Below are positions 53,701-62,446 of a stretch of DNA of 64,000 bases, in pieces. The stretch spans positions 6,368,001-6,432,000 of the forward strand of contig OZ253462.1 of NCBI GenBank assembly GCA_965261395.1, given 5' to 3'. Position 1 is the stretch's first letter. Every line of letters begins with the position of its first letter. The DNA is from Candidatus Latescibacterota bacterium (GTDB lineage Bacteria; Latescibacterota; UBA2968; UBA8231). The notes beneath the pieces were generated by a model. It did no database searches, was not told the DNA's origin, and worked only from the letters and a program-made list of their open reading frames with translations. The position numbers were made by a program, and so were the translations under genes.

Positions 53701-54690
53701 CTACAACCACTGTAACAAGAACCGAGCCTGTGCCTCCTCTAAGCTTAGCAAGCCCTGGACGTACTCGCGGATGCGCTTCAGCATGGCCGCCGGATCGTTG
53801 CACGCTCCCTTGAAGAACAAGACGCGCGTCGCTTCCCAACGCCGGCCTATGTCCCCAAAGGTATCGGCCGCAGCCGACAGGGCACCTAAGCCGGTTGCAG
53901 CCGCCAGCCGCCGCAGGTTGTCGTCCATCCGTCGGCGCTGAGGGCCGAGTAGGGATATCTGGCAGAACACCTCCCGCATCCAAACGCGCAGGCTCTCTTC
54001 GTCCTGCTCAGTCTGACGCTCTATCTCCTCGACAAAGCGCTGCGCGGCCGGCAGGCCCGTCTCTACCCGGCCGACCTTGTTGCCCGCGAGCATCTCCCGC
54101 ACATCCGCCAAGAGGACCTGCCCCATTTTTTTAACTGGATAAGGGTCGAGATCCTCGGGTACCGCGTAGTCGTACACCACCAGCTCGGGCAACATCTCGG
54201 ACAGACAAGAGAGCGGCACCCGCCCTACAAAGCCCTGTGGATTGACTAAGACCATCAACATATCCGCCGCTTGATCGTACCCGTAGATGAGCATGGCTTC
54301 GCTCGCGCCGGGGGTGCGATTGTAGCGAAAGGCCGCATCGCTTACATCGCGGGCATCCACCCAAGCGAGCAGCACCCGGTCTGCGGCAATTGACTCCTCA
54401 ATGGCCTGCCACAGGTCGGCAAAATTGTCGCGGCGCACCTCGCGGCGCTCAATTCCGTGGAGATAGTACAAATTGCGATGGATAAGCTCGTTGGCGGGCA
54501 GGCCGACTGGCATTCTCTCCTCGGCGTCAAAAAAGAACGACCAGCTCATCAAGGCCCCGTAGTACGCTCGCTCGTCGGCGAGCTGGGGGCTATGGTATTG
54601 GAGCGCGGCCATAATAGTCTCCCCAGGGGCGAACAACATAGGATCCCTCTCGACTCGGTATAGATTAACAGGGCGACGTACCTTTTTCAC
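53701..54690 (-). CDS. BtrH_N-like (papain-fold) protein
   Basis: IEESIAADRVLLAWVD, MLIYGYD motifs and helical C-terminal region. Confidence 0.5.
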   Translation of the reverse strand: MKKVRRPVNLYRVERDPMLFAPGETIMAALQYHSPQLADERAYYGALMSWSFFFDAEERMPVGLPANELIHRNLYYLHGIERREVRRDNFADLWQAIEESIAADRVLLAWVDARDVSDAAFRYNRTPGASEAMLIYGYDQAADMLMVLVNPQGFVGRVPLSCLSEMLPELVVYDYAVPEDLDPYPVKKMGQVLLADVREMLAGNKVGRVETGLPAAQRFVEEIERQTEQDEESLRVWMREVFCQISLLGPQRRRMDDNLRRLAAATGLGALSAAADTFGDIGRRWEATRVLFFKGACNDPAAMLKRIREYVQGLLSLEEAQARFLLQWL

Positions 54691-54879
54691 GGTATCCTCA
54701 ATCGGTTAGGGTGAGTTGCCAAAGTCAGGGCAAGGCGCACATATAGAGTGGTCTAAAAAGGACTTCTGCTCTAGACAGCGGATGGGATGGTAATGAGCAA
54801 GTCGCCTTGGGCCGAGGCGGGCTTTCACCGCGCCTTCAGGCGTGAACATGACCCATCTCCTTTGGAGAAGGGAACAGGA

Positions 54880-55040
54880 GGCCCCCGAAGGGGCCGGGCC
54901 GTGTCCAACATTCCCTGCAGAATGCAGCGATGTCTCTACCTATTCACCAAGGCGGAGGGAGCGACCCTTCGCCGGGTTTCGGCTATTGTATTAAGCAGAT
55001 AACCCGACTAAGGCGGGATCTGCAAGGAATGATGGACAGC
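54880..55040 (-). ncRNA. Candidate structured non-coding RNA / leader (unassigned)
   Basis: 20-bp closing inverted repeat (54902-54921 / 55019-55038), internal hairpins, and a following cUUCGg hairpin on the minus strand. Confidence 0.35.
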
Positions 55041-55096
55041 CTGAAGATAGGGGGAGATGGTCACTGGCGACAAGGCAAACTTGTTTGGTGATGGGC

Positions 55097-55126
55097 AAAA
55101 AAAACCAGCCCCTTGGCGGGGCTGGT
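55097..55126 (-). terminator. Rho-independent terminator after the DUF1854 gene
   Basis: ACCAGCCCC-GCCAA-GGGGCTGGT stem followed by a T-run on the minus strand. Confidence 0.85.
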
Positions 55127-55152
55127 CGGCACGTTGCAACGGCGAGCGCTGG

Positions 55153-55683
55153 TCAGACGACCTGCTCAACCGCGGCCAAACTCTTCTTGTCCAGTTCGTC
55201 GAGGCGCGGAATTTCAAAGCGGTTGCCGTCCACGTCGGTGATCAGCAGCCGGTGGTCGCCGAGCCACTGGGCGTTTTCCGAGACGTTCTGGACGACGAAC
55301 TCGCGCGGGCCGCGATCGGTCTGCACATCCCAATAAGAGGTGCCGTATTCGTTGCGCACCGCATTGACCTGCTGAATCGCCGCGGTCAAATAGCGGCGGT
55401 CCAACTCCTCCTCAATCAAGGCGCGCGCCTCTAAGTCGAGCTGTGTGAGTTCGTCGATCATACAGATCTCCTCATCTTTGGCGTCGAGGAAGCAGATATG
55501 GCGGGTCGGGTGGGACAGCGGCGCGGCGCGGACGACCTTTACCTTCAGGTACGAGCGGTCGCCGTCAATGGTCAAGCGCAAGATCCAAGCCGGCTCGCGG
55601 AACAGGCGCAGCTTGCCAATTTCTACGTGCTCGGGATGAGTCACGGAAATCGGGGTGATCGCTGGTTTTTCGTTATCTGCCAT
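55153..55683 (-). CDS. DUF1854-domain protein
   Basis: VVRAAPLSHP, IEEELDRRY, YWDVQTDRG, LITDVDGNRFEI; this family commonly follows paired ABC exporters. Confidence 0.82.
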   Translation of the reverse strand: MADNEKPAITPISVTHPEHVEIGKLRLFREPAWILRLTIDGDRSYLKVKVVRAAPLSHPTRHICFLDAKDEEICMIDELTQLDLEARALIEEELDRRYLTAAIQQVNAVRNEYGTSYWDVQTDRGPREFVVQNVSENAQWLGDHRLLITDVDGNRFEIPRLDELDKKSLAAVEQVV

Positions 55684-55697
55684 TGCGTCGTTCCTCA

Positions 55698-56011
55698 CTA
55701 GCCGCTGGTGGCCATAACCGCCGAAGTCTCGCGTTGGGTGTTTACCAGGTTGTAGAAAATGCCCTCGCGCGCCATCAGTTCCTCGTGCGTGCCAACCTCG
55801 GCTATTTTGCCCGCGTCGAGGACCACGAGGCGATCCGCGCTGCGCAGCGTCGAGAGCCGGTGGGCAATGGCAAAAGTCGTGCGGCCTTTGACGAGCCGCT
55901 GAATAGCCTCCTGGATCTTCTTCTCGGTCGGCGTGTCGAGCGACGAAGTCGCCTCGTCTAAGATCAGGATCCTCGGGTCGTGGAGAATGGCCCGCGCAAT
56001 GGAGATGCGCT
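55698..56011 (-). repeat. Duplicated 3' end of the ABC transporter gene (left direct repeat of the RiPP island)
   Basis: 55720-56011 matches 60249-60540 over 292 bp with about four substitutions; encodes ...[11 protein letters not shown] vs ...[11 protein letters not shown]. Confidence 0.92.
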
Positions 56012-56065
56012 ATCGGCCGTATATGAGTATGCTCAGACTTATGAAGAAATCTGCTTCATTGGAAC

Positions 56066-57121
56066 TTACTCAGCGCCCTCGCACCAAGAGAAGTTTATGC
56101 TGAACCGGTCAGCACCAAGGACTTCAGTAACCAAGTGGTTGGAATTCGTTGATACGCGGAAGAAGAATAGTCTATTGTGGGTAGGGGTAACTGCCTCAAC
56201 AACTTCTGTTGGATCAGACCCCATTGCTACTAATACACCATCATTCGGTGCCCGATACTCGGTATCGAGAAAGAGTACGCCCCGGAGTCGCTCGCCATTG
56301 GGATGACAATCGTTGTGGAAGCCTATATAATCGCCTAAGCGCATTTTGTGAGCTACCACTTCGGGGTTGTGCAAGGCGACATGACCGGTAGCGGTTGCGA
56401 GCCAAGAAAGCATAGCATCGGAACACAAGGCTGCCGTCAAATTGCCAATCGCTGGCCCGAGGCCAGGATCGCCAGTTTGAAAAATAAACTCATCCTGTAG
56501 GTAGAAGTCGGTTTCTGCACGGAACCAGCCTTGAAGTGTTTTCAACTCCTGTAAACACTGTTCTGCGATATCTCTTTGTAGAAAGTTATCAAAGATCGCA
56601 TGGGGAAAACCTTCGGCTCCCCAGAAGCGTCCTTGGTGGCACACCAATGTTTCTACGGTCATCCATTCGGGTGACAACACCGGGCTCAGCGCATTGAGAG
56701 ATTCGGAACTCGGAAGTGGTGTCATTGGGTGCTGCGTGAAATCAATTGCTGGACATGAACTGCGACCAACAATTGCATAGGCAGCTAGACGATGCAGCCC
56801 ATCCCAAAGTGTGCCATCCAAGCCAATCACAATCGGAGGTGGTTCGAAGCCTGTCCGGAGCCTTGCGGCTAGTTGCTGTATGTACTCGACGTGTTCTTTC
56901 TGTTCCGCCGGAAGTTGGGATATCTCAGCGTCGTGCTGGGCAAGTTGAATCGCTTGGCGAAGCGTACCAACATGCTCGCCCCACCTTTCGGCATCCAACA
57001 AGTATGCTAGCTGATCCTGGACGCCTACGATCCGGACGCAACGAGGGTGATAGGACGCCAGCAGTTCTCCGATATGCCAACGGTTCCCCTGTCCGTCGTC
57101 ATAGATGCTCTCGGATTTCAC
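56066..57121 (-). CDS. ParB/sulfiredoxin-like N-terminal domain fused to a 2OG-Fe(II) oxygenase (YhhC-like)
   Basis: PPPIVI...LWDGLHRL (ParB/Srx DGxHR); HNDC...NHLV...RFS facial triad and 2OG-binding Arg; GTG start overlapping the upstream stop. Confidence 0.75.
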   Translation of the reverse strand: MKSESIYDDGQGNRWHIGELLASYHPRCVRIVGVQDQLAYLLDAERWGEHVGTLRQAIQLAQHDAEISQLPAEQKEHVEYIQQLAARLRTGFEPPPIVIGLDGTLWDGLHRLAAYAIVGRSSCPAIDFTQHPMTPLPSSESLNALSPVLSPEWMTVETLVCHQGRFWGAEGFPHAIFDNFLQRDIAEQCLQELKTLQGWFRAETDFYLQDEFIFQTGDPGLGPAIGNLTAALCSDAMLSWLATATGHVALHNPEVVAHKMRLGDYIGFHNDCHPNGERLRGVLFLDTEYRAPNDGVLVAMGSDPTEVVEAVTPTHNRLFFFRVSTNSNHLVTEVLGADRFSINFSWCEGAE

Positions 57122-58356
57122 AGAGCGGCCTCTAGCTTGGCCATGGAGTGGAATACGTCGCCGCCAGCTTGGGTGAATGGGCAATGAATGGCTAGTAGGT
57201 TATGCACTTGGCTGAGTTGCTCAGACACTTCTTCAACACGGCGTGAGGCATATCGGGATAGCTGATGCTCTCCCATTGCTACGCGCCGCCAAAACGCCCC
57301 TACAATGGCAAACACGAAGTACCCGTGCAGCAACCCGCTCAAAGGACGTGGCTCCCCCTTCCAAGGCGATGGATAACATATGATATGCGCGGAGGAGTCA
57401 TACAGAGGTATCTGGCTCTCAAGTAAGTACAGCTTTTGATGGCTGTGTTCGTGTATCAGCGAGTCCAACAGATCGCCTAGGCCGATGGGTTTGCCAGCGA
57501 CTATGGGACATAAGAACACGGCACCCGGCACACTGTTATTGCTAAAGCTGCTGACAGTGTTCTGGTTGACCAGATCGCTATAGAACACTACATGGCGGTT
57601 GATGAGCAGGAGTTCATCCCATAGTTCGGGCCACTGACCGCGGAGTATCTCCAATGCTTCCCTTAGTACGCGGTCCGTAGCGGAAGCCTCGGCCACCATC
57701 GGTATGCCGAAGTCACAGCCGGACTCAAACGGCTTCGTGAGATACGGGCTTCTAGCATCAATTTCGACATGGCCTTCGTACAACGGTGTAGCCAATGCTC
57801 GCCAGCACTCCTCGGTGGCAATTTCGGTCCAGACGGGAAGTTGTGAATCGGCAGTCAACTCCACGAGCAGGCCGTCCACCAACAGACCAGACTTCTCCAC
57901 GCTGCAATGAACGGGTCTGCCGCCACTAAGTAGAGTACCTCCGGTCCCCGCGAGTGTGAACGCAACTTGAGGATGTAGCGTCGCCTCGTGACCGACGGTG
58001 CCTGACGCGAGTCCTGCCGCTAAGGCAAAGGGGTAGAAGTCCCGGTGATCGAAGCCGCGCTGGCGGCAGGCTTGGATCTCATCCTCGTCACCGTATATGA
58101 GTACCTCGGCCATAAGTTGCCACGAAACGAACGACGGATCGGATACTAGCAAGTCGCGTCCCTTAGAATTCAGACTTTCCAACACTGACAGTGCCGAGGC
58201 TGCCCAAGCACGGTAATCATCCACCTCATGGAGCATGGTGAGGATCGCGACGAGGTCTTCCCATTGCTGGCACATCCAAGCTAGCCTCACGCACTTAAGT
58301 GTCTGCTTAGATGCGGACGGGTCGGCGAACGACGAGCAGTCGTAACCGGTACTCAT
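57118..58356 (-). CDS. aKG-HExxH-type peptide modification protein
   Basis: SSFS...PGAVFL, LIHEHSHQKL, YPSPWKGEPRPLSGLLHGYFVF. Confidence 0.85.
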   Translation of the reverse strand: MSTGYDCSSFADPSASKQTLKCVRLAWMCQQWEDLVAILTMLHEVDDYRAWAASALSVLESLNSKGRDLLVSDPSFVSWQLMAEVLIYGDEDEIQACRQRGFDHRDFYPFALAAGLASGTVGHEATLHPQVAFTLAGTGGTLLSGGRPVHCSVEKSGLLVDGLLVELTADSQLPVWTEIATEECWRALATPLYEGHVEIDARSPYLTKPFESGCDFGIPMVAEASATDRVLREALEILRGQWPELWDELLLINRHVVFYSDLVNQNTVSSFSNNSVPGAVFLCPIVAGKPIGLGDLLDSLIHEHSHQKLYLLESQIPLYDSSAHIICYPSPWKGEPRPLSGLLHGYFVFAIVGAFWRRVAMGEHQLSRYASRRVEEVSEQLSQVHNLLAIHCPFTQAGGDVFHSMAKLEAAL

Positions 58357-59549
58357 GAATCAACCGGTGTCGCTACCAGTCCCAAGTCCTGACGAACCAC
58401 CCTATTCACATGGCGTATCAGGTGCGCGAGGTCTCCGCAGTATATCGAAGGGTTGGCGAATCCATTCGCTTTCGAGTAACGATGCGGCAAATGTCCTGCG
58501 CCACATACCGGCGCAAGTGAACAGCTAGTGCAGGACGGTGGAAGTTGCTGATGGAGTTCCATGCGCTGACGGACGAAATCCGAGGACAGAACTTCCGCGA
58601 ATGAGGAGGAGACGACGTTCCACTTTCGACCCAGAATGGGCACCCCATGGTCAGTGATCTTCATCACGTCCACGTCTTGGATCTCGCCGTTAGTTTCAAC
58701 AGTGAGGATGGAAAAGTATCCGGGACCGATTCCCTCGGTGCGGCTCTCTCCGCCGAGTGTCAGGTCAAGGACATTCTCGAAAAGTCGAACACGGAGGTCG
58801 CCCTTTGATGCGTACCAAGAGTCAAACGCTCGTTGAAGCCACTTCCCGTAAACGGCAGCGTTGTCTCGTATTCCCGGCTCAGCAATTCCCGGGGGGATAT
58901 TCTCGTATGTTCCATCCGGCAACAAGAAGTCTATGCTGGGAATTCCCATCCGTTGTGCCCAAGTCAGGGTTTCCACGGGGTCTGCCGCAAGATCAACAAC
59001 CGCAAGGACACCCCTGAACATATCCGCGTACCTTGGTTGGCTAGTCATCAACCGGATCGCTCCCTCAACAGCCTGAAAGGTAGGCCGCCCCTGGTGGTCA
59101 ATACGGTGTACGTCATGGGATTGAGGGCCATCGGCACTCACAGCAACCGTCATGTCGTAACTAGCGAAAAGATCAAGCCAAGCAGCGTCAAGCAGTACGC
59201 CGTTGGTTTGAAGGGACATGGAAAGCTGTCGGGATGCGTTGGGGAGTTCATTTCGGACTGCTTCAATGAGCGCCCTGAACCGCTGCTTGCCGAGGAGCAA
59301 AGGCTCCCCGCCATGAAAAACTACTGTAACTTCGTCAAAGCCAGTGTCATCCAGATACTCGGCGAGGCGGCGACCAAAGGCGGTCGCAGTACCAAGCGAC
59401 ATCAGCTTGGGTTGCTCTCGCCATGATTGGTCAGGATGCTCATAGACATAACAATAGTCGCAAGCCAGATTGCACCGGCTTGCGACTTTCAGTAGGAAGC
59501 TCGTCACAAACGGGGATCGCTCGCTCCCTTCAGGCACAGCCCCATTCAT
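58353..59549 (-). CDS. Cyclophane-forming radical SAM/SPASM peptide maturase (FxsB/YhhB-like)
   Basis: LLKVASRCNLACDYCYVY, FHGGEPLL, QTNG, C-terminal CTSC...CGAGHLPHRY...NPSIYC. Confidence 0.9.
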   Translation of the reverse strand: MNGAVPEGSERSPFVTSFLLKVASRCNLACDYCYVYEHPDQSWREQPKLMSLGTATAFGRRLAEYLDDTGFDEVTVVFHGGEPLLLGKQRFRALIEAVRNELPNASRQLSMSLQTNGVLLDAAWLDLFASYDMTVAVSADGPQSHDVHRIDHQGRPTFQAVEGAIRLMTSQPRYADMFRGVLAVVDLAADPVETLTWAQRMGIPSIDFLLPDGTYENIPPGIAEPGIRDNAAVYGKWLQRAFDSWYASKGDLRVRLFENVLDLTLGGESRTEGIGPGYFSILTVETNGEIQDVDVMKITDHGVPILGRKWNVVSSSFAEVLSSDFVRQRMELHQQLPPSCTSCSLAPVCGAGHLPHRYSKANGFANPSIYCGDLAHLIRHVNRVVRQDLGLVATPVDS

Positions 59550-59555
59550 TCGCTA

Positions 59556-59726
59556 CTAGCTCTTGTTGTGCTTATGGTGCTGCCTGTCGTAGCGAACAGC
59601 TACTGCGCTACCCTTGCCTCCGCGCTCTATGACCCGCGCTACTGCGGCTTGGAGTCTATGATTCTCAATAAGAGAGTTGTCCAAGGTCTTGGGATCGATG
59701 TTCGGGAGGGTGGTTTTCTGGCTCAT
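59556..59726 (-). CDS. RiPP precursor peptide, 56 aa (YhhA-like triceptide)
   Basis: Manual translation MSQKTTLPNIDPKTLDNSLIENHRLQAAVARVIERGGKGSAVAVRYDRQHHKHNKS*; AAGGAG RBS; stop 6 nt before the rSAM start; below the ORF-track size cut-off. Confidence 0.88.
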   Translation of the reverse strand: MSQKTTLPNIDPKTLDNSLIENHRLQAAVARVIERGGKGSAVAVRYDRQHHKHNKS

Positions 59727-60226
59727 TTACTAGCTCCTTTCTTTGCGTTCGTTGCTAAAATAAATGGCACCAAGAATTTATTTAGAGCGAATAAATATAT
59801 CTCGTCGGCGTCCTAAGGTCAAGAGCTACTAGTGGGTAGTGACTCAGTTTGAAATCCAGCTTCCGAGAGCCGAAATCAGGCCCGGAACTTGCATAGGCGC
59901 AAAAAGGCGAGGGGAGTAGTGGATCGCCCTACCAGCCTACCGAGGCCGAGGATAACCGAGCGCTAGGGAAAACCCGTGGCGTCCTATCCGTCGAACTTGC
60001 TGATCGGAGTCAAGCCTTTAGTCGATGATCTTCATCGTCTTTTTGTACAACTTCGTCCACTTGTGGAAATGTTCCGCCTTGTGGAGATGTCTAAAAGGAA
60101 ATATCAGTGCTCGGTCGAAAAGTTCCTGAGTTTCATATCTCTCAAACGTTTTTCCGGCCATTATCTTTTTACTTGTGTGGCCAGAAATCGCTCACTGTAG
60201 ATTTTGGGTCATTCAGCCTCCGCAAA

Positions 60227-62446
60227 TTACCCTCCCGTAGCCATGACAGCCGAAGTCTCGCGTTGGGTGTTTACCAGATTGTAGAAAATGCCCTCGCGCG
60301 CCATCAGTTCCTCGTGCGTGCCAACCTCGGCTATTTTGCCCGCGTCGAGGACCACGAGGCGATCCGCGCTGCGCAGCGTCGAGAGCCGGTGGGCAATGGC
60401 AAAAGTCGTGCGGCCTTTGACGAGCCGCTGAATAGCCTCCTGGATCTTCTTCTCGGTCGGCGTGTCGAGCGACGAGGTCGCCTCGTCTAAGATTAGTATC
60501 CTCGGGTCGTGGAGAATGGCCCGCGCAATGGAGATGCGCTGCTTCTCACCGCCGGCCAGCTTGTTGCCCTGCTCCCCGACGACCATGTCGTACCCGTCCG
60601 GCTGTTTGACGATGAACTCGTGGGCGTTGGCCGCGCGGGCCGCGCGCAAAATCTCGTCGAAAGTGGCACCGGGCTTGCCGTAGGCGATGTTTTCGGCAAT
60701 CGTGCCGTTGAACAAAAACGACTGCTGGGCCACCATGCCGATCTGCGAGCGCAGGTCGCGCAGGCGAATGTTGCGGATATCGACCCCGTCGATGGCGAGG
60801 CGGCCATGCGAGACATCGTAAAAGCGCGTGATTAGGTTGATCAGCGTACTCTTGCCCGTCCCAGACTTGCCGACTAGACCGATCATCTCGCCCGGCTGCA
60901 CCACCAAATCGATGTCGCGCAGGACGATTTTGCCTGGGTCGTAGCCAAAGGCCGCGTTCTCAAAGGCGACTTGACCCTCAATCGTGGGGATGCGCTGGGC
61001 ACTGGGATTGTCAAAAGGCTCGGAGGGCGCATCGACGATTTCAAAGATGCGCTCAGCACCGGCAAAGGCCCGCACCATGAAACTGTAGAAGTCGCCAAAC
61101 CACTTGAGCGGGTGGTAGAGCATCCACAGATAGGCGATAAAGGCCATCAACTCCCCTAGCGACAGGTCGCCCTCAACGATCTGCTGACCGCCGAAATACC
61201 ACACGAAGAACCCGCCAAAGCTCATAAAGAAATTGGTCACCATAAAGAAGACCAACCAAGCGCGCTCCGCGCTGACGCTGATTTGGCGCAAGGCGTGGTT
61301 GCGCTGATCAAAGCGCTCGGACTCGCGGTGCTCTTGCGCGAAAGCCTTGACCACGCGGATGCCGGAGATCGACTCGTTGAGATGAGTCGTCAGCCGCGAC
61401 CAGCGCACCGACCAACGGCCCCAGAAGCGTTGCAGGCGATTCCAGATGAGGCTCGAGCCAATGATGATCGGCGGCACCGGGGCCAGCACGTAGAGGGTCA
61501 GCTCCCAGTTCATGTAGAACAGCAGCCCCAAGATGCCGACGATCATCGCGGCATTGGAGACGATGTAGGGCATGTCAAAGAGCAGAAAGTCTTCGACCAT
61601 CTCCGAGTCGTTGTTCATGCGGGAGATCAAAGCGCCGACCTTGCGCTTGTCGTAAAAGCGCAGGGGCAGGTACTGGAGCGCCTTGAACAAGTCCGTGCGC
61701 AAGTGCTCGATGGCGCGGAAGCCGACCCGGGTGTTGAGCCAGCGGCGCACCACGCCGATGCACCACTCGACGACGCCGATGACAAAAAGGCCGCCGACCA
61801 GCCAGTAGAGTAGGTTGATATTAGCGGCGGCACCGGGGACGAGAACGTCGTCGATGAGATGCTTAACGATATAGGGCGGTGCCAGCTCCAGCAGCGAGGA
61901 TAACACGGTCAGACCCAGTAGCAACGCTAGCTGGAGGCGATAGGGCAGCATGTAGCCGATCAGGCGCTTAAAGGTATCGAATTTGGCGATGCAGACCGGG
62001 CATATCCCACCCACCTCGGGCAGGCGGCGCTGGCATTGCTCGCAGTGCGTGCGGTCCAGCTCGTGGGGCAGGTTGAGGTCTTGACCCTCTTTGAGCTGCT
62101 CAATGCCCTCGGCGACCTCGGCGAATTTGGCCGCCAGTGAGTTGGAGTAATACAAATGAGCGGGTGCACCCGCCTCGCGCTCCAGTTCCAAGCGCCCGCC
62201 GCCGACTAGCGCCTCAATGCGGGCAGACTTGACCGCTTGCAGCGCAAACTCCACTTCACCGCTCGCGCCGTTGGGCACGAGGACCATCAGGCGCTCCGAC
62301 GTCACGACCAACCAGCGTTGCTCGAAGCGGTCCTCGCCGGCCATATCCGTGGCGACCTGGATCAAGACTTTTTCCTCGCGGCCCTTGCGCGAGCGAACTT
62401 TGGCTTCGACGGTGTGCGGCAGATTTTCCAAAAAGAAGGTGGACAT
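60227..62446 (-). CDS. ABC exporter, permease + ATP-binding, with N-terminal extension containing CxxC..CxxC
   Basis: [25 protein letters not shown]; CEQC...CPVC. Confidence 0.92.
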   Translation of the reverse strand: MSTFFLENLPHTVEAKVRSRKGREEKVLIQVATDMAGEDRFEQRWLVVTSERLMVLVPNGASGEVEFALQAVKSARIEALVGGGRLELEREAGAPAHLYYSNSLAAKFAEVAEGIEQLKEGQDLNLPHELDRTHCEQCQRRLPEVGGICPVCIAKFDTFKRLIGYMLPYRLQLALLLGLTVLSSLLELAPPYIVKHLIDDVLVPGAAANINLLYWLVGGLFVIGVVEWCIGVVRRWLNTRVGFRAIEHLRTDLFKALQYLPLRFYDKRKVGALISRMNNDSEMVEDFLLFDMPYIVSNAAMIVGILGLLFYMNWELTLYVLAPVPPIIIGSSLIWNRLQRFWGRWSVRWSRLTTHLNESISGIRVVKAFAQEHRESERFDQRNHALRQISVSAERAWLVFFMVTNFFMSFGGFFVWYFGGQQIVEGDLSLGELMAFIAYLWMLYHPLKWFGDFYSFMVRAFAGAERIFEIVDAPSEPFDNPSAQRIPTIEGQVAFENAAFGYDPGKIVLRDIDLVVQPGEMIGLVGKSGTGKSTLINLITRFYDVSHGRLAIDGVDIRNIRLRDLRSQIGMVAQQSFLFNGTIAENIAYGKPGATFDEILRAARAANAHEFIVKQPDGYDMVVGEQGNKLAGGEKQRISIARAILHDPRILILDEATSSLDTPTEKKIQEAIQRLVKGRTTFAIAHRLSTLRSADRLVVLDAGKIAEVGTHEELMAREGIFYNLVNTQRETSAVMATGG

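Follow-up and report, generated by a model that had tools for sequence, protein, structure and literature searches.

Which product is made by four tightly packed genes of a Candidatus Latescibacterota bacterium, and how did these genes reach their present site? Both questions are raised by a cassette on the minus strand of a 64,000-nt stretch of contig OZ253462.1 (assembly GCA_965261395.1, positions 6,368,001 to 6,432,000), which was analysed at its full length and is called the window hereafter; all coordinates below are positions in this window. The four open reading frames (ORFs) of the cassette lie head to tail and encode, in this order, a precursor peptide, a radical S-adenosylmethionine (rSAM) enzyme, an alpha-ketoglutarate-dependent (aKG) protein of the HExxH type and a 2-oxoglutarate (2OG) oxygenase. 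The cassette was very probably acquired horizontally and would direct the synthesis of a YhhA-type triceptide, that is, a peptide made by ribosomes and modified after translation (RiPP) carrying three-residue cyclophanes. As judged from its sequences, the cluster is a divergent variant of the YhhA-type triceptides and not a new class.

The precursor gene (59556-59726, minus strand) was identified as an ORF of 56 aa with the C-terminal end VRYDRQHHKHNKS. A Shine-Dalgarno box AAGGAG was read in the sequence 7 nt 5' of its ATG (59734-59739, minus strand), and its stop is separated by a 6-nt gap from the ATG of the rSAM gene (58353-59549, minus strand), whose 398-aa product was assigned as a radical SAM/SPASM three-residue cyclophane synthase from hidden Markov model (HMM) scores and motifs. 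The stop of this gene shares an ATGA with the start of the next one (57118-58356, minus strand), which encodes a putative stand-alone aKG-HExxH-type peptide beta-hydroxylase of 412 aa, recognized by its TIGR04267 match and its HEHSH motif. A GTGA is likewise common to the latter and to the gene of the predicted two-domain 2OG/Fe(II) oxygenase (351 aa; 56066-57121, minus strand), itself recognized with the YhhC HMM. The longest ORF of the oxygenase begins at a TTG at 57184, and an alternative GTG at 57121 gives 351 aa. The GTG was considered the most likely start because a GAGG box lies 7 nt 5' of it, because it overlaps the stop of the HExxH gene and because the database cluster that holds the oxygenase is 351 aa long. 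A preliminary description of the locus had reported a short ORF with a strong ribosome-binding site, directly followed by tightly coupled rSAM, HExxH and oxygenase genes; all four ORFs were found as placed there, and the observation of a four-gene RiPP cassette is confirmed. It had also stated that the cassette lacks a protease and an exporter of its own, which is true for the whole 4.2-kb island in which the genes reside, two ATP-binding cassette (ABC) exporter genes just upstream belonging to the host. The N-terminal domain of the oxygenase and the insertion of the cassette, both described below, are additions to that description.

The precursor can be divided into a leader (about residues 1-45) and a core, YDRQHHKHNKS (residues 46-56; 59559-59591, minus strand), which was delimited by motif conservation and K/R swaps and in which three aromatic-X-[K/R] motifs follow one another: Y46-D47-R48, H50-H51-K52 and H53-N54-K55. 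A search of 5.8 billion proteins yielded three homologues of 56 aa (88, 86 and 80% identity) with the cores YNRAHHRHNRS, YDKQHHRHNKS and YDRQHHKHNKS. Among the four precursors, Y46, H50, H51, H53, N54 and S56 are constant in the core, changes are confined to D/N47, R/K48, Q/A49, K/R52 and K/R55, and the third motif positions (48, 52 and 55) vary between K and R only; the consensus of the four cores reads Y-[DN]-[RK]-x-H-H-[KR]-H-N-[KR]-S. The precursor matches the YhhA model NF041705 (E 9.2e-5), as do its three close homologues (19.7-29.2 bits), all four remaining under the cut-off of 36 bits. Given this match and the three conserved homologues of equal length, the small ORF is more than a chance reading frame. 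Its gene is present in a single copy in the genome.

Peptides of the form ...SYDR[ML]HHRH[SN]R[SHQ] are encoded in 7 of the 160 loci that were fetched with the rSAM protein, and the five of them that were scanned all scored above the YhhA cut-off (39-52 bits). The remaining rows of this core-motif search, which matched by chance in incorrect frames of GC-rich DNA, were discarded. Across 11 aligned peptides, A28, R31, Y46, H50, H51 and H53 are invariant, and the YDR/HHK/HNK of the window aligns with YDR/HHR/HSR of the YhhA peptides and with YDR/HNR/HNR of the annotated YhhA of a Vibrio plasmid (C-terminal end AYDRTHNRHNRGQ). The window, related-locus and Vibrio peptides thus have a common layout of Tyr-x-[R/K], His-x-[R/K] and His-x-[R/K], which fits three predicted rings on YDR, HHK and HNK. 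The three aromatic-X-X triplets noticed in the preliminary description are therefore conserved in homologues and correspond in alignment to the YDR/HxR/HxR cores of YhhA; the Lys acceptors that it proposed apply to rings 2 and 3 (Lys52 and Lys55), whereas ring 1 would use Arg48.

The rSAM protein contains the motifs CNLACDYC (CX3CX2C) at residue 26 and CTSCSLAPVC at residue 340, and was assigned to Radical_SAM by Pfam. Comparison with family HMMs gave the result that had been predicted beforehand: the protein passes the cut-off of FxsB (TIGR04269, one of the 3-CyFE families of the FxsB/XyeB/GrrM group; 384.3 bits, cut-off 370), and its best-scoring model is YhhB (NF041707). The score against XyeB was 165 bits (cut-off 450). 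Its best relatives in 185,579 species genomes have identities of 36-43%, with 79 of the top 80 coming from Actinomycetota, and relatives in metagenomes are 37-46% identical. Trees of the rSAM proteins were computed by FastTree on 142 rows (after removal of 18 of the 160 loci for short or interrupted matches) and by IQ-TREE on 42 rows, the latter comprising all YhhA-linked and fused rows, 24 randomly drawn stand-alone rows (including L009 and L012) and the window. A split that unites the window with the 5 YhhA-linked rSAMs, against the rest (36 others in IQ-TREE), obtained a Shimodaira-Hasegawa (SH)-like support of 99 in FastTree and an SH approximate likelihood ratio test value of 100 in IQ-TREE. 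Such a tree is compatible with the window rSAM being a deep sister of the YhhB group.

Two further rSAM proteins of the phylum were recorded in these searches. A second SPASM rSAM of the same genome lies outside the window (G000:C1:2712289-2713320); it is a 448-aa frame, 28% identical, with an FxsB score of 110 bits, and it has counterparts of 445-451 aa in 22 of 24 same-genus genomes, so that it is native and unrelated to the island. In another genus of the same family, a 687-aa frame (G123:C515:1726-2706) reaches 158 bits against FxsB, well under the cut-off, and possibly represents a further fused rSAM peptide maturase of the phylum.

The HExxH protein was matched by TIGR04267 over residues 231-401 with 106.6 bits (cut-off 40), a stretch that includes HEHSH at residue 302. 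Its residues 216-366 share 36% identity with the HExxH region of a fused YhhB-HExxH protein, whereas residues 1-215 are unlike the fused proteins; a Pfam scan assigned no family to residues 1-230. Five stand-alone homologues of 410-414 aa were found (92, 89, 47, 43 and 41% identity), the nearest fused form (716 aa) being 34% identical, and the existence of these five proteins indicates that the separation of the rSAM and HExxH genes is not an artefact. Among the first 80 loci retrieved by means of the rSAM protein, 58 contain an HExxH relative.

The C-terminal half of the oxygenase was assigned, by HMM and Foldseek, to a YhhC-like double-stranded beta-helix domain (about residues 183-351; 56069-56575, minus strand). 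The YhhC model NF041706 matches residues 191-367 of the long ORF (E 1.2e-21, profile positions 5-180), and PF13661 and PF13640 (2OG-FeII_Oxy_3/4) are both above their cut-offs. The facial triad and the 2OG-binding Arg correspond to H269, D271, H329 and R339, all of them invariant in six homologues. The best Foldseek matches of this half are PolD, OGFOD1/Tpa1 and PHD2 (E 1.7e-9 and weaker). The model of the whole protein has a mean predicted local distance difference test score (pLDDT) of 64.8 and is weaker than that of the N-terminal domain described below. A metagenome scan with the alignment of the oxygenase found no relative, and tblastn searches of the window precursor and oxygenase against the first 80 loci returned nothing at E 1e-3 or better.

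A model of the oxygenase in complex with the precursor received a score of 0.77 (best of three controls: 0.06). This score is a model confidence for an enzyme-substrate pair and not a measurement; it is reached by 116 of 157 solved complexes and by 2 of 215 mismatched pairs, with runs agreeing in at least 35% of contacts, these calibration counts holding only roughly because custom alignments were used. Residues 7-40 of the leader touch residues 205-208, 264-270, 291-310 and 328-333 of the enzyme in this model, all in the 2OG domain, and the fold of the precursor in it is uncertain (partner pLDDT of at least 47).

These proteins were then compared with known triceptide systems, for which about 3900 pathways have been predicted (PMC11499958). 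YhhB joins Tyr-C3 and His-C2 to the beta-carbon of Arg (PMC11002830) and makes an HNR ring (PMC11499958). HtkB joins His-C2 to the beta-carbon of Lys (PMC11499958), and rings on YSK, HAS and FTK are reported for MicB (PMC12912966); the His-Lys link of HtkB and the YSK and FTK rings of MicB are thus precedents for Lys acceptors. The window would resemble both systems in the use of Lys as C-beta acceptor and in that one enzyme can make three rings on Tyr and His motifs (PMC11499958; PMC12912966). By their descriptions, HtkB and MicB are set apart from the window by other rSAM subfamilies, precursors and tailoring. Concerning hydroxylation, YhhC forms L-erythro-beta-hydroxy-Asp on YhhB-modified YhhA (PMC12186529), and the HExxH domain of ChlB, whose native motif includes YDR (PMC11499958), acts as an aKG/Fe enzyme on Asp and His, which it beta-hydroxylates only once the cyclophanes have been made (PMC12636437, citing Morishita 2024).

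The yhhABC cluster on plasmid p1 of Vibrio echinoideorum (NZ_AP025485.1) has, like the window, the order precursor, SPASM rSAM and 2OG oxygenase, and its core YDR-T-HNR-HNR has the same Tyr-His-His layout as YDR-Q-HHK-HNK of the window, which differs by Lys in place of the Arg acceptor of YhhA in rings 2 and 3. Its YhhB is a stand-alone protein of 378 aa, to which the window rSAM is 35% identical over 377 residues, and its YhhC, of 196 aa and without an N-terminal domain, shares 30% identity with the window oxygenase in residues 184-350 of the latter (over 178 residues). The Vibrio cluster consists of yhhA, yhhB and yhhC only, with no HExxH gene, whereas the window has one. Conversely, ChlB-type maturases share with the window the pairing of a cyclophane synthase with an aKG-HExxH beta-hydroxylase, but combine rSAM and HExxH in one polypeptide, instead of the two genes sharing ATGA and the YhhC-like second hydroxylase of the window. 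Three YhhA-type loci from Actinomycetota or metagenomes (L001, L026 and L104) also encode rSAM-HExxH fusions, of 696-730 aa and with YhhB scores of 462-487 bits, and no YhhC was found among the neighbouring ORFs scanned. In a further locus (L063), the rSAM ORF extends more than 200 codons beyond the rSAM domain, up to the contig end. The two hydroxylase types are thus carried separately by the comparison clusters (YhhC in Vibrio, fused HExxH in three loci) and are joined in the window. For the closest sister clusters (P0002-P0010 and P0032-P0036), gene order was inferred from matching protein sets only; in one case, that of P0005 and P0036, the longest contigs are of equal length (42665).

Two observations were made on the surroundings of these related loci. 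The Vibrio cluster (L189, NZ_AP025485.1 12137-14796) lies on a conjugative plasmid with a recombinase-family gene directly behind it, another sign of travelling small cassettes. Behind the fused genes of L104 (5277-7376) and L026 (8001-10091) follow a protein of about 353 aa without family, a GNAT acetyltransferase and a protein of about 200 aa, which together give the impression of a conserved tailoring set; in L104, a weak peptide-arginase match was obtained for the 353-aa protein and one sub-threshold DUF483 match for the protein of about 200 aa, which has no confident family.

Several results weigh against an assignment of the window to the YhhA-type triceptides. The precursor, the rSAM protein and the oxygenase all remain under the YhhA, YhhB and YhhC equivalog cut-offs (22.5 of 36, 410.9 of 445 and 77.2 of 150 bits, respectively), so that the cluster was considered Yhh-like and not a member of Yhh. 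The branch of the window rSAM is long (1.1 changes per column) and joins about midway between the two groups, at 0.70 from the YhhA-linked and 0.79 from the other proteins; since the tree is unrooted and the attachment lies midway on the separating branch, it puts the window rSAM inside neither group. Finally, the RNA run X18 covers the flanks of the island only, and its reads come from a relative with an empty site, 4-5% diverged. The triceptide interpretation, which had already been put forward in the preliminary description, is nevertheless supported by the family scores, the motifs and the conservation of the core.

The linked atoms and the hydroxylated residues were inferred by analogy with the systems cited above. 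The 56-aa precursor would be bound through its leader, and the rSAM enzyme would join the aromatic ring of the first residue of each motif to the beta-carbon of the third, yielding the rings Tyr46-Arg48, His50-Lys52 and His53-Lys55 with a loss of 6 Da for the three. Two Fe(II)/2-oxoglutarate enzymes would then beta-hydroxylate middle ring residues: Asp47 (an Asn in one homologue) is the most likely target of the YhhC-like domain, and His51 that of the aKG-HExxH protein, with Asp47 or Asn54 as further possibilities for the latter. This distribution of residues is a guess and a weak point of the scheme, as Asp47 could serve both enzymes. The earlier proposal of two hydroxylation chemistries is itself well founded, since a YhhC-type and an aKG-HExxH-type hydroxylase are both encoded in the cluster. 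Removal of the leader and export would have to be provided from outside the cassette, which does not encode them. It may be speculated that the His-rich, Tyr- and Asp-containing core binds metal ions.

The oxygenase differs from known YhhC proteins by its N-terminal domain (residues 1-135; 56717-57121, minus strand), for which a ParB/sulfiredoxin-like (ParB/Srx) fold was proposed from a fold model and a profile alignment. No family, and in particular no ParB_N match, was detected in residues 1-169 by a Pfam scan. A full HMMER pass over 1.84 billion representatives gave 23 relatives at E 0.001 or better; among the 17 that were Pfam-scanned, 4 have a 2OG domain behind, 1 has ParB_N on the matching stretch and 12 are familyless. 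In one relative of 898 aa (P0029), the N-domain and a 2OG domain precede DUF3109 and a protein kinase domain, from which it appears that the ParB/Srx-2OG module is reused in other architectures. P96, D107, G108, H110 and R111 are invariant in 12 homologues of the N-domain, down to 22% identity. The model of the N-domain (21 rows) has a mean pLDDT of 79.2; its best Foldseek E-value was 0.07, with ParB-N, sulfiredoxin, Osa, Noc and SbnI in the top rows. VIA-align of residues 22-135 against 48,161 chains placed sulfiredoxin first (Z 7.2, root-mean-square deviation 3.8, 78 aligned), and 10 of the 11 top rows have the ParB/Srx fold, with Z of 4.4-7.2, a range rated middling by the tool. In the profile alignment, DGLHRL-A falls on GGCHRYAA of sulfiredoxin (E 0.017), the catalytic Cys being replaced by Leu. 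A protein atlas returned small, mostly viral ParB-named clusters at 0.93, which was taken as a lead only. From these profiles and models we conclude that the N-domain is probably a remote ParB/Srx-like domain. Its fold would be that of sulfiredoxin, SerK, SbnI, ParB, KorB and Osa, from which it differs by the lack of the catalytic Cys and by its fusion to a 2OG hydroxylase. No description of a ParB/Srx-like domain fused to a peptide 2OG hydroxylase was found among the literature matches listed, which were judged by title.

Alternative explanations were weighed for the rSAM enzyme and for this N-domain. SPASM rSAM families cross-match, and the anaerobic sulfatase maturase model TIGR03942 finds the window rSAM with 143.1 bits (E 1.1e-41), as would be expected if the enzyme were another SPASM protein, for example such a maturase, beside a spurious small ORF. 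This explanation, named in the preliminary description as the case that would speak against its own reading, is extremely improbable and is largely refuted already: 143 bits compare with a cut-off of 349, whereas the FxsB cut-off is passed, the island contains no sulfatase gene, and a separate 448-aa SPASM rSAM exists in the genome and throughout the genus. The motif-preserving changes in the homologues and the match to the YhhA model, for their part, argue against a spurious ORF. For the N-domain, there is about an even chance that it is a non-catalytic accessory, either a recognition or docking module replacing the RiPP recognition element (RRE) or a structural remnant. Pfam and NCBIfam scans of the four proteins revealed no RRE/PqqD family, so that some leader- or core-binding module is expected, and the canonical YhhC (196 aa) is active without such a domain (PMC12186529), which makes the N-domain dispensable for hydroxylation as such. 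The complex model, on the other hand, places no confident contact on residues 1-200 (the residues it does not name being uncertain, not excluded), and the invariance of a nucleotide-site-like motif is not what an accessory would lead one to expect. The same residues P96, D107, G108, H110 and R111 form a pattern that one would sooner meet in an active site than on a docking surface, and they suggest a second, quite unlikely function, namely a catalytic module that, like sulfiredoxin, the serine kinase SerK and SbnI, would use a nucleotide and would phosphorylate or otherwise activate a hydroxyl of the peptide (the newly made beta-hydroxyl or that of the invariant C-terminal Ser56). The alignment of DGLHR with the active-site stretch GGCHR of sulfiredoxin (E 0.017), the kinases SerK (Z 5.8) and SbnI (Z 5.1) among the fold matches, the modelling of the leader on the 2OG domain and not on the N-domain (0.77 versus 0.06 for the control, with the rough calibration given above) and the recurrence of the 2OG fusion in 4 of the 17 scanned homologues, once with a protein kinase domain, are all consistent with catalysis. 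Against it, the evidence for the ParB/Srx fold is marginal throughout (no Pfam family, Foldseek E of at least 0.07, VIA Z of at most 7.2), Leu occupies the position of the sulfiredoxin catalytic Cys, and the domain might just as well be a binder of the core peptide or of another protein, or bind nothing. If true, a catalytic N-domain would give a product with a modification new to triceptides.

The cassette is carried by an inserted island of 4225 nt (56012-60236), which comprises the four genes and a 510-nt 5' spacer and was delimited by the empty site and the GC contrast. On one side lies the host gene of a cyanophycin-metabolism-associated ABC transporter (739 aa; 60227-62446, minus strand; NF052233, 647.8 bits, cut-off 880), which is not part of the cassette and is present in same-genus relatives; on the other lies the host DUF1854 gene (55153-55698, minus strand; PF08909, 143.8 bits), which the island has cut off from its ABC partner. 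The site is empty in all 9 same-genus loci examined, with ABC and DUF1854 side by side and the 4225 nt absent, and window positions 54500-56011 and 60237-62046 map to adjoining stretches in these nine relatives with a 304-nt overlap. The GC content is 0.533 in the island and 0.57-0.62 in the flanking host genes; at third codon positions it is 0.51-0.67 in the island genes, 0.74-0.86 in ABC1, ABC2, DUF1854 and orf329, and 0.68 in orf223. No orthologue of the rSAM gene was found in 24 same-genus genomes (best match 28% identical), and among 168 genomes of the phylum the YhhC-like family and an FxsB score above cut-off occur only in this one. The spacer (59727-60236) has no second copy in the genome, and the island has no DNA match in the PLSDB plasmid collection.

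The island is framed by two copies of a 313-nt repeat: copy B (60228-60540, minus strand) forms the 3' end of the ABC gene, which is intact, and copy A (55699-56011, minus strand), next to DUF1854, duplicates the final 313 nt of that gene as an orphan. The copies differ at 11 of 313 positions, clustered at both ends, the middle 197 nt being identical. At the stop-proximal tip, copy A matches the relatives, and none of the nine resembles copy B in its last 20 or so nt (five sense codons and the stop), where nearly the same last residues (ATGG versus ATSG) are encoded by other codons and another stop; at the distal end, copy B agrees in allele with the nearest relative (95% identical flanks), and copy A has the allele common in other relatives. 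This mosaic of alleles led us to favour slightly a single-crossover (Campbell-type) integration of a circle that carried the cassette and a 313-nt gene-end copy. The crossover would have occurred between the host gene end and the homologous segment on the circular molecule, and the cassette/segment junction at 56011/56012 would be internal to the incoming element; consistent with the latter, contigs of two other runs contain a 7-12% diverged island copy bridging this junction (55971-56821). The integration model suffers from the fact that only 11 repeat differences are informative, from the lack of any circular form in the sequencing runs compared, and from the absence of an identified donor. 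The missing circle-type joint also counts in favour of a somewhat unlikely alternative, in which no circle was crossed in and the island is either a site-specific element with a lost integrase or an insertion that followed a tandem duplication in situ. Gene 3' ends are a common target of integrative elements, which bring along a replacement end, as the site-specific version would have it; usual attachment-site cores, however, are far shorter than the 313-nt repeat, and no integrase, transposase or inverted terminal repeat was found in the 4225 nt by ORF, repeat and Pfam checks. The identical middle 197 nt could point to a recent duplication or to gene conversion. The three distal differences of copy A, though, all correspond to genus alleles, and the tip of copy B matches none of nine relatives; random mutation after a duplication in situ would not make the differences coincide with genus alleles.

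Joints 56011->60605 and 55970->60611, obtained from runs X6 and X7, were considered as possible excision products and rejected, as they were read as intact ABC genes of other organisms mapping to the duplication. In five same-genus genomes (G011, G012, G001, G013 and G041), about 90-100 nt at the ABC/DUF1854 junction are unlike the window (about 35 nt of the query unmatched), and this junction is variable in the genus.

Occurrence of the island elsewhere was followed in sequencing runs. It is present and identical in run X2, on a 4297-nt contig, and in diverged copies in runs X6 and X7, where the indels of the rSAM gene amount to one compensating +1/-1 pair, 3 nt apart, and the others fall only in non-coding DNA (56054-56057 and 59781-59917), an indel pattern that was taken as a mark of selection. 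The best-matching runs may include the genome's own sample and are not independent support. A 1041-nt contig of the metatranscriptome X18 joins window positions 55400-55710 to 60240-60686, that is, ABC to DUF1854 without the island. A candidate promoter, TTGACC-17-TATATT (10 of 12 positions), lies about 68 nt 5' of the precursor ATG (59794-59822, minus strand); promoter-like sites are no commoner in the region than in shuffled sequence (4 found, 3.2 expected). No terminator-like site was found behind the oxygenase gene, and a strong terminator-like hairpin stands behind DUF1854 (55103-55127), from which it follows that DUF1854 is now probably transcribed together with the cassette. An Rfam search of 55000-61000 gave no credible RNA family, with one microRNA model at E 0.43.

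Two other reading frames of the region deserve mention. The 5' spacer of the island contains a 47-aa ORF (60018-60161, minus strand) rich in His, Lys and aromatic residues (...FRHLHKAEHFHKWTKLYKK...), which lacks both a clear ribosome-binding site and a Pfam or NCBIfam family, and at which no indel is listed in the diverged island copies; it may represent a second substrate peptide or nothing at all. Just 3' of DUF1854, a 329-aa host protein (53701-54690, minus strand) has a weak BtrH_N-like match (E 8e-4, under cut-off), and at least the 5' end of its gene (54500-54690) is present in relatives.

Triceptides are an established and fast-growing class, in which one further cluster would be unsurprising alone. 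The present one is distinguished by the stand-alone HExxH protein next to a YhhC-like hydroxylase, by the rare, conserved ParB/Srx-like domain predicted on the latter and by a clean, integrase-free insertion. It is a long shot that the oxygenase is bifunctional, performing beta-hydroxylation and then a nucleotide-dependent group transfer, in a cassette that spreads among related strains without integrase, leaving and re-entering by means of a 313-nt gene-end copy; if true, a bifunctional oxygenase would represent a new post-translational step for triceptides and the first peptide-modifying role of a ParB/Srx domain. As a YhhC-type and an HExxH-type hydroxylase are found in one operon, the cluster would offer a natural system for the division of work on a tricyclic core, and the anatomy of the insertion provides a concrete example of a small biosynthetic cassette moving between related genomes.

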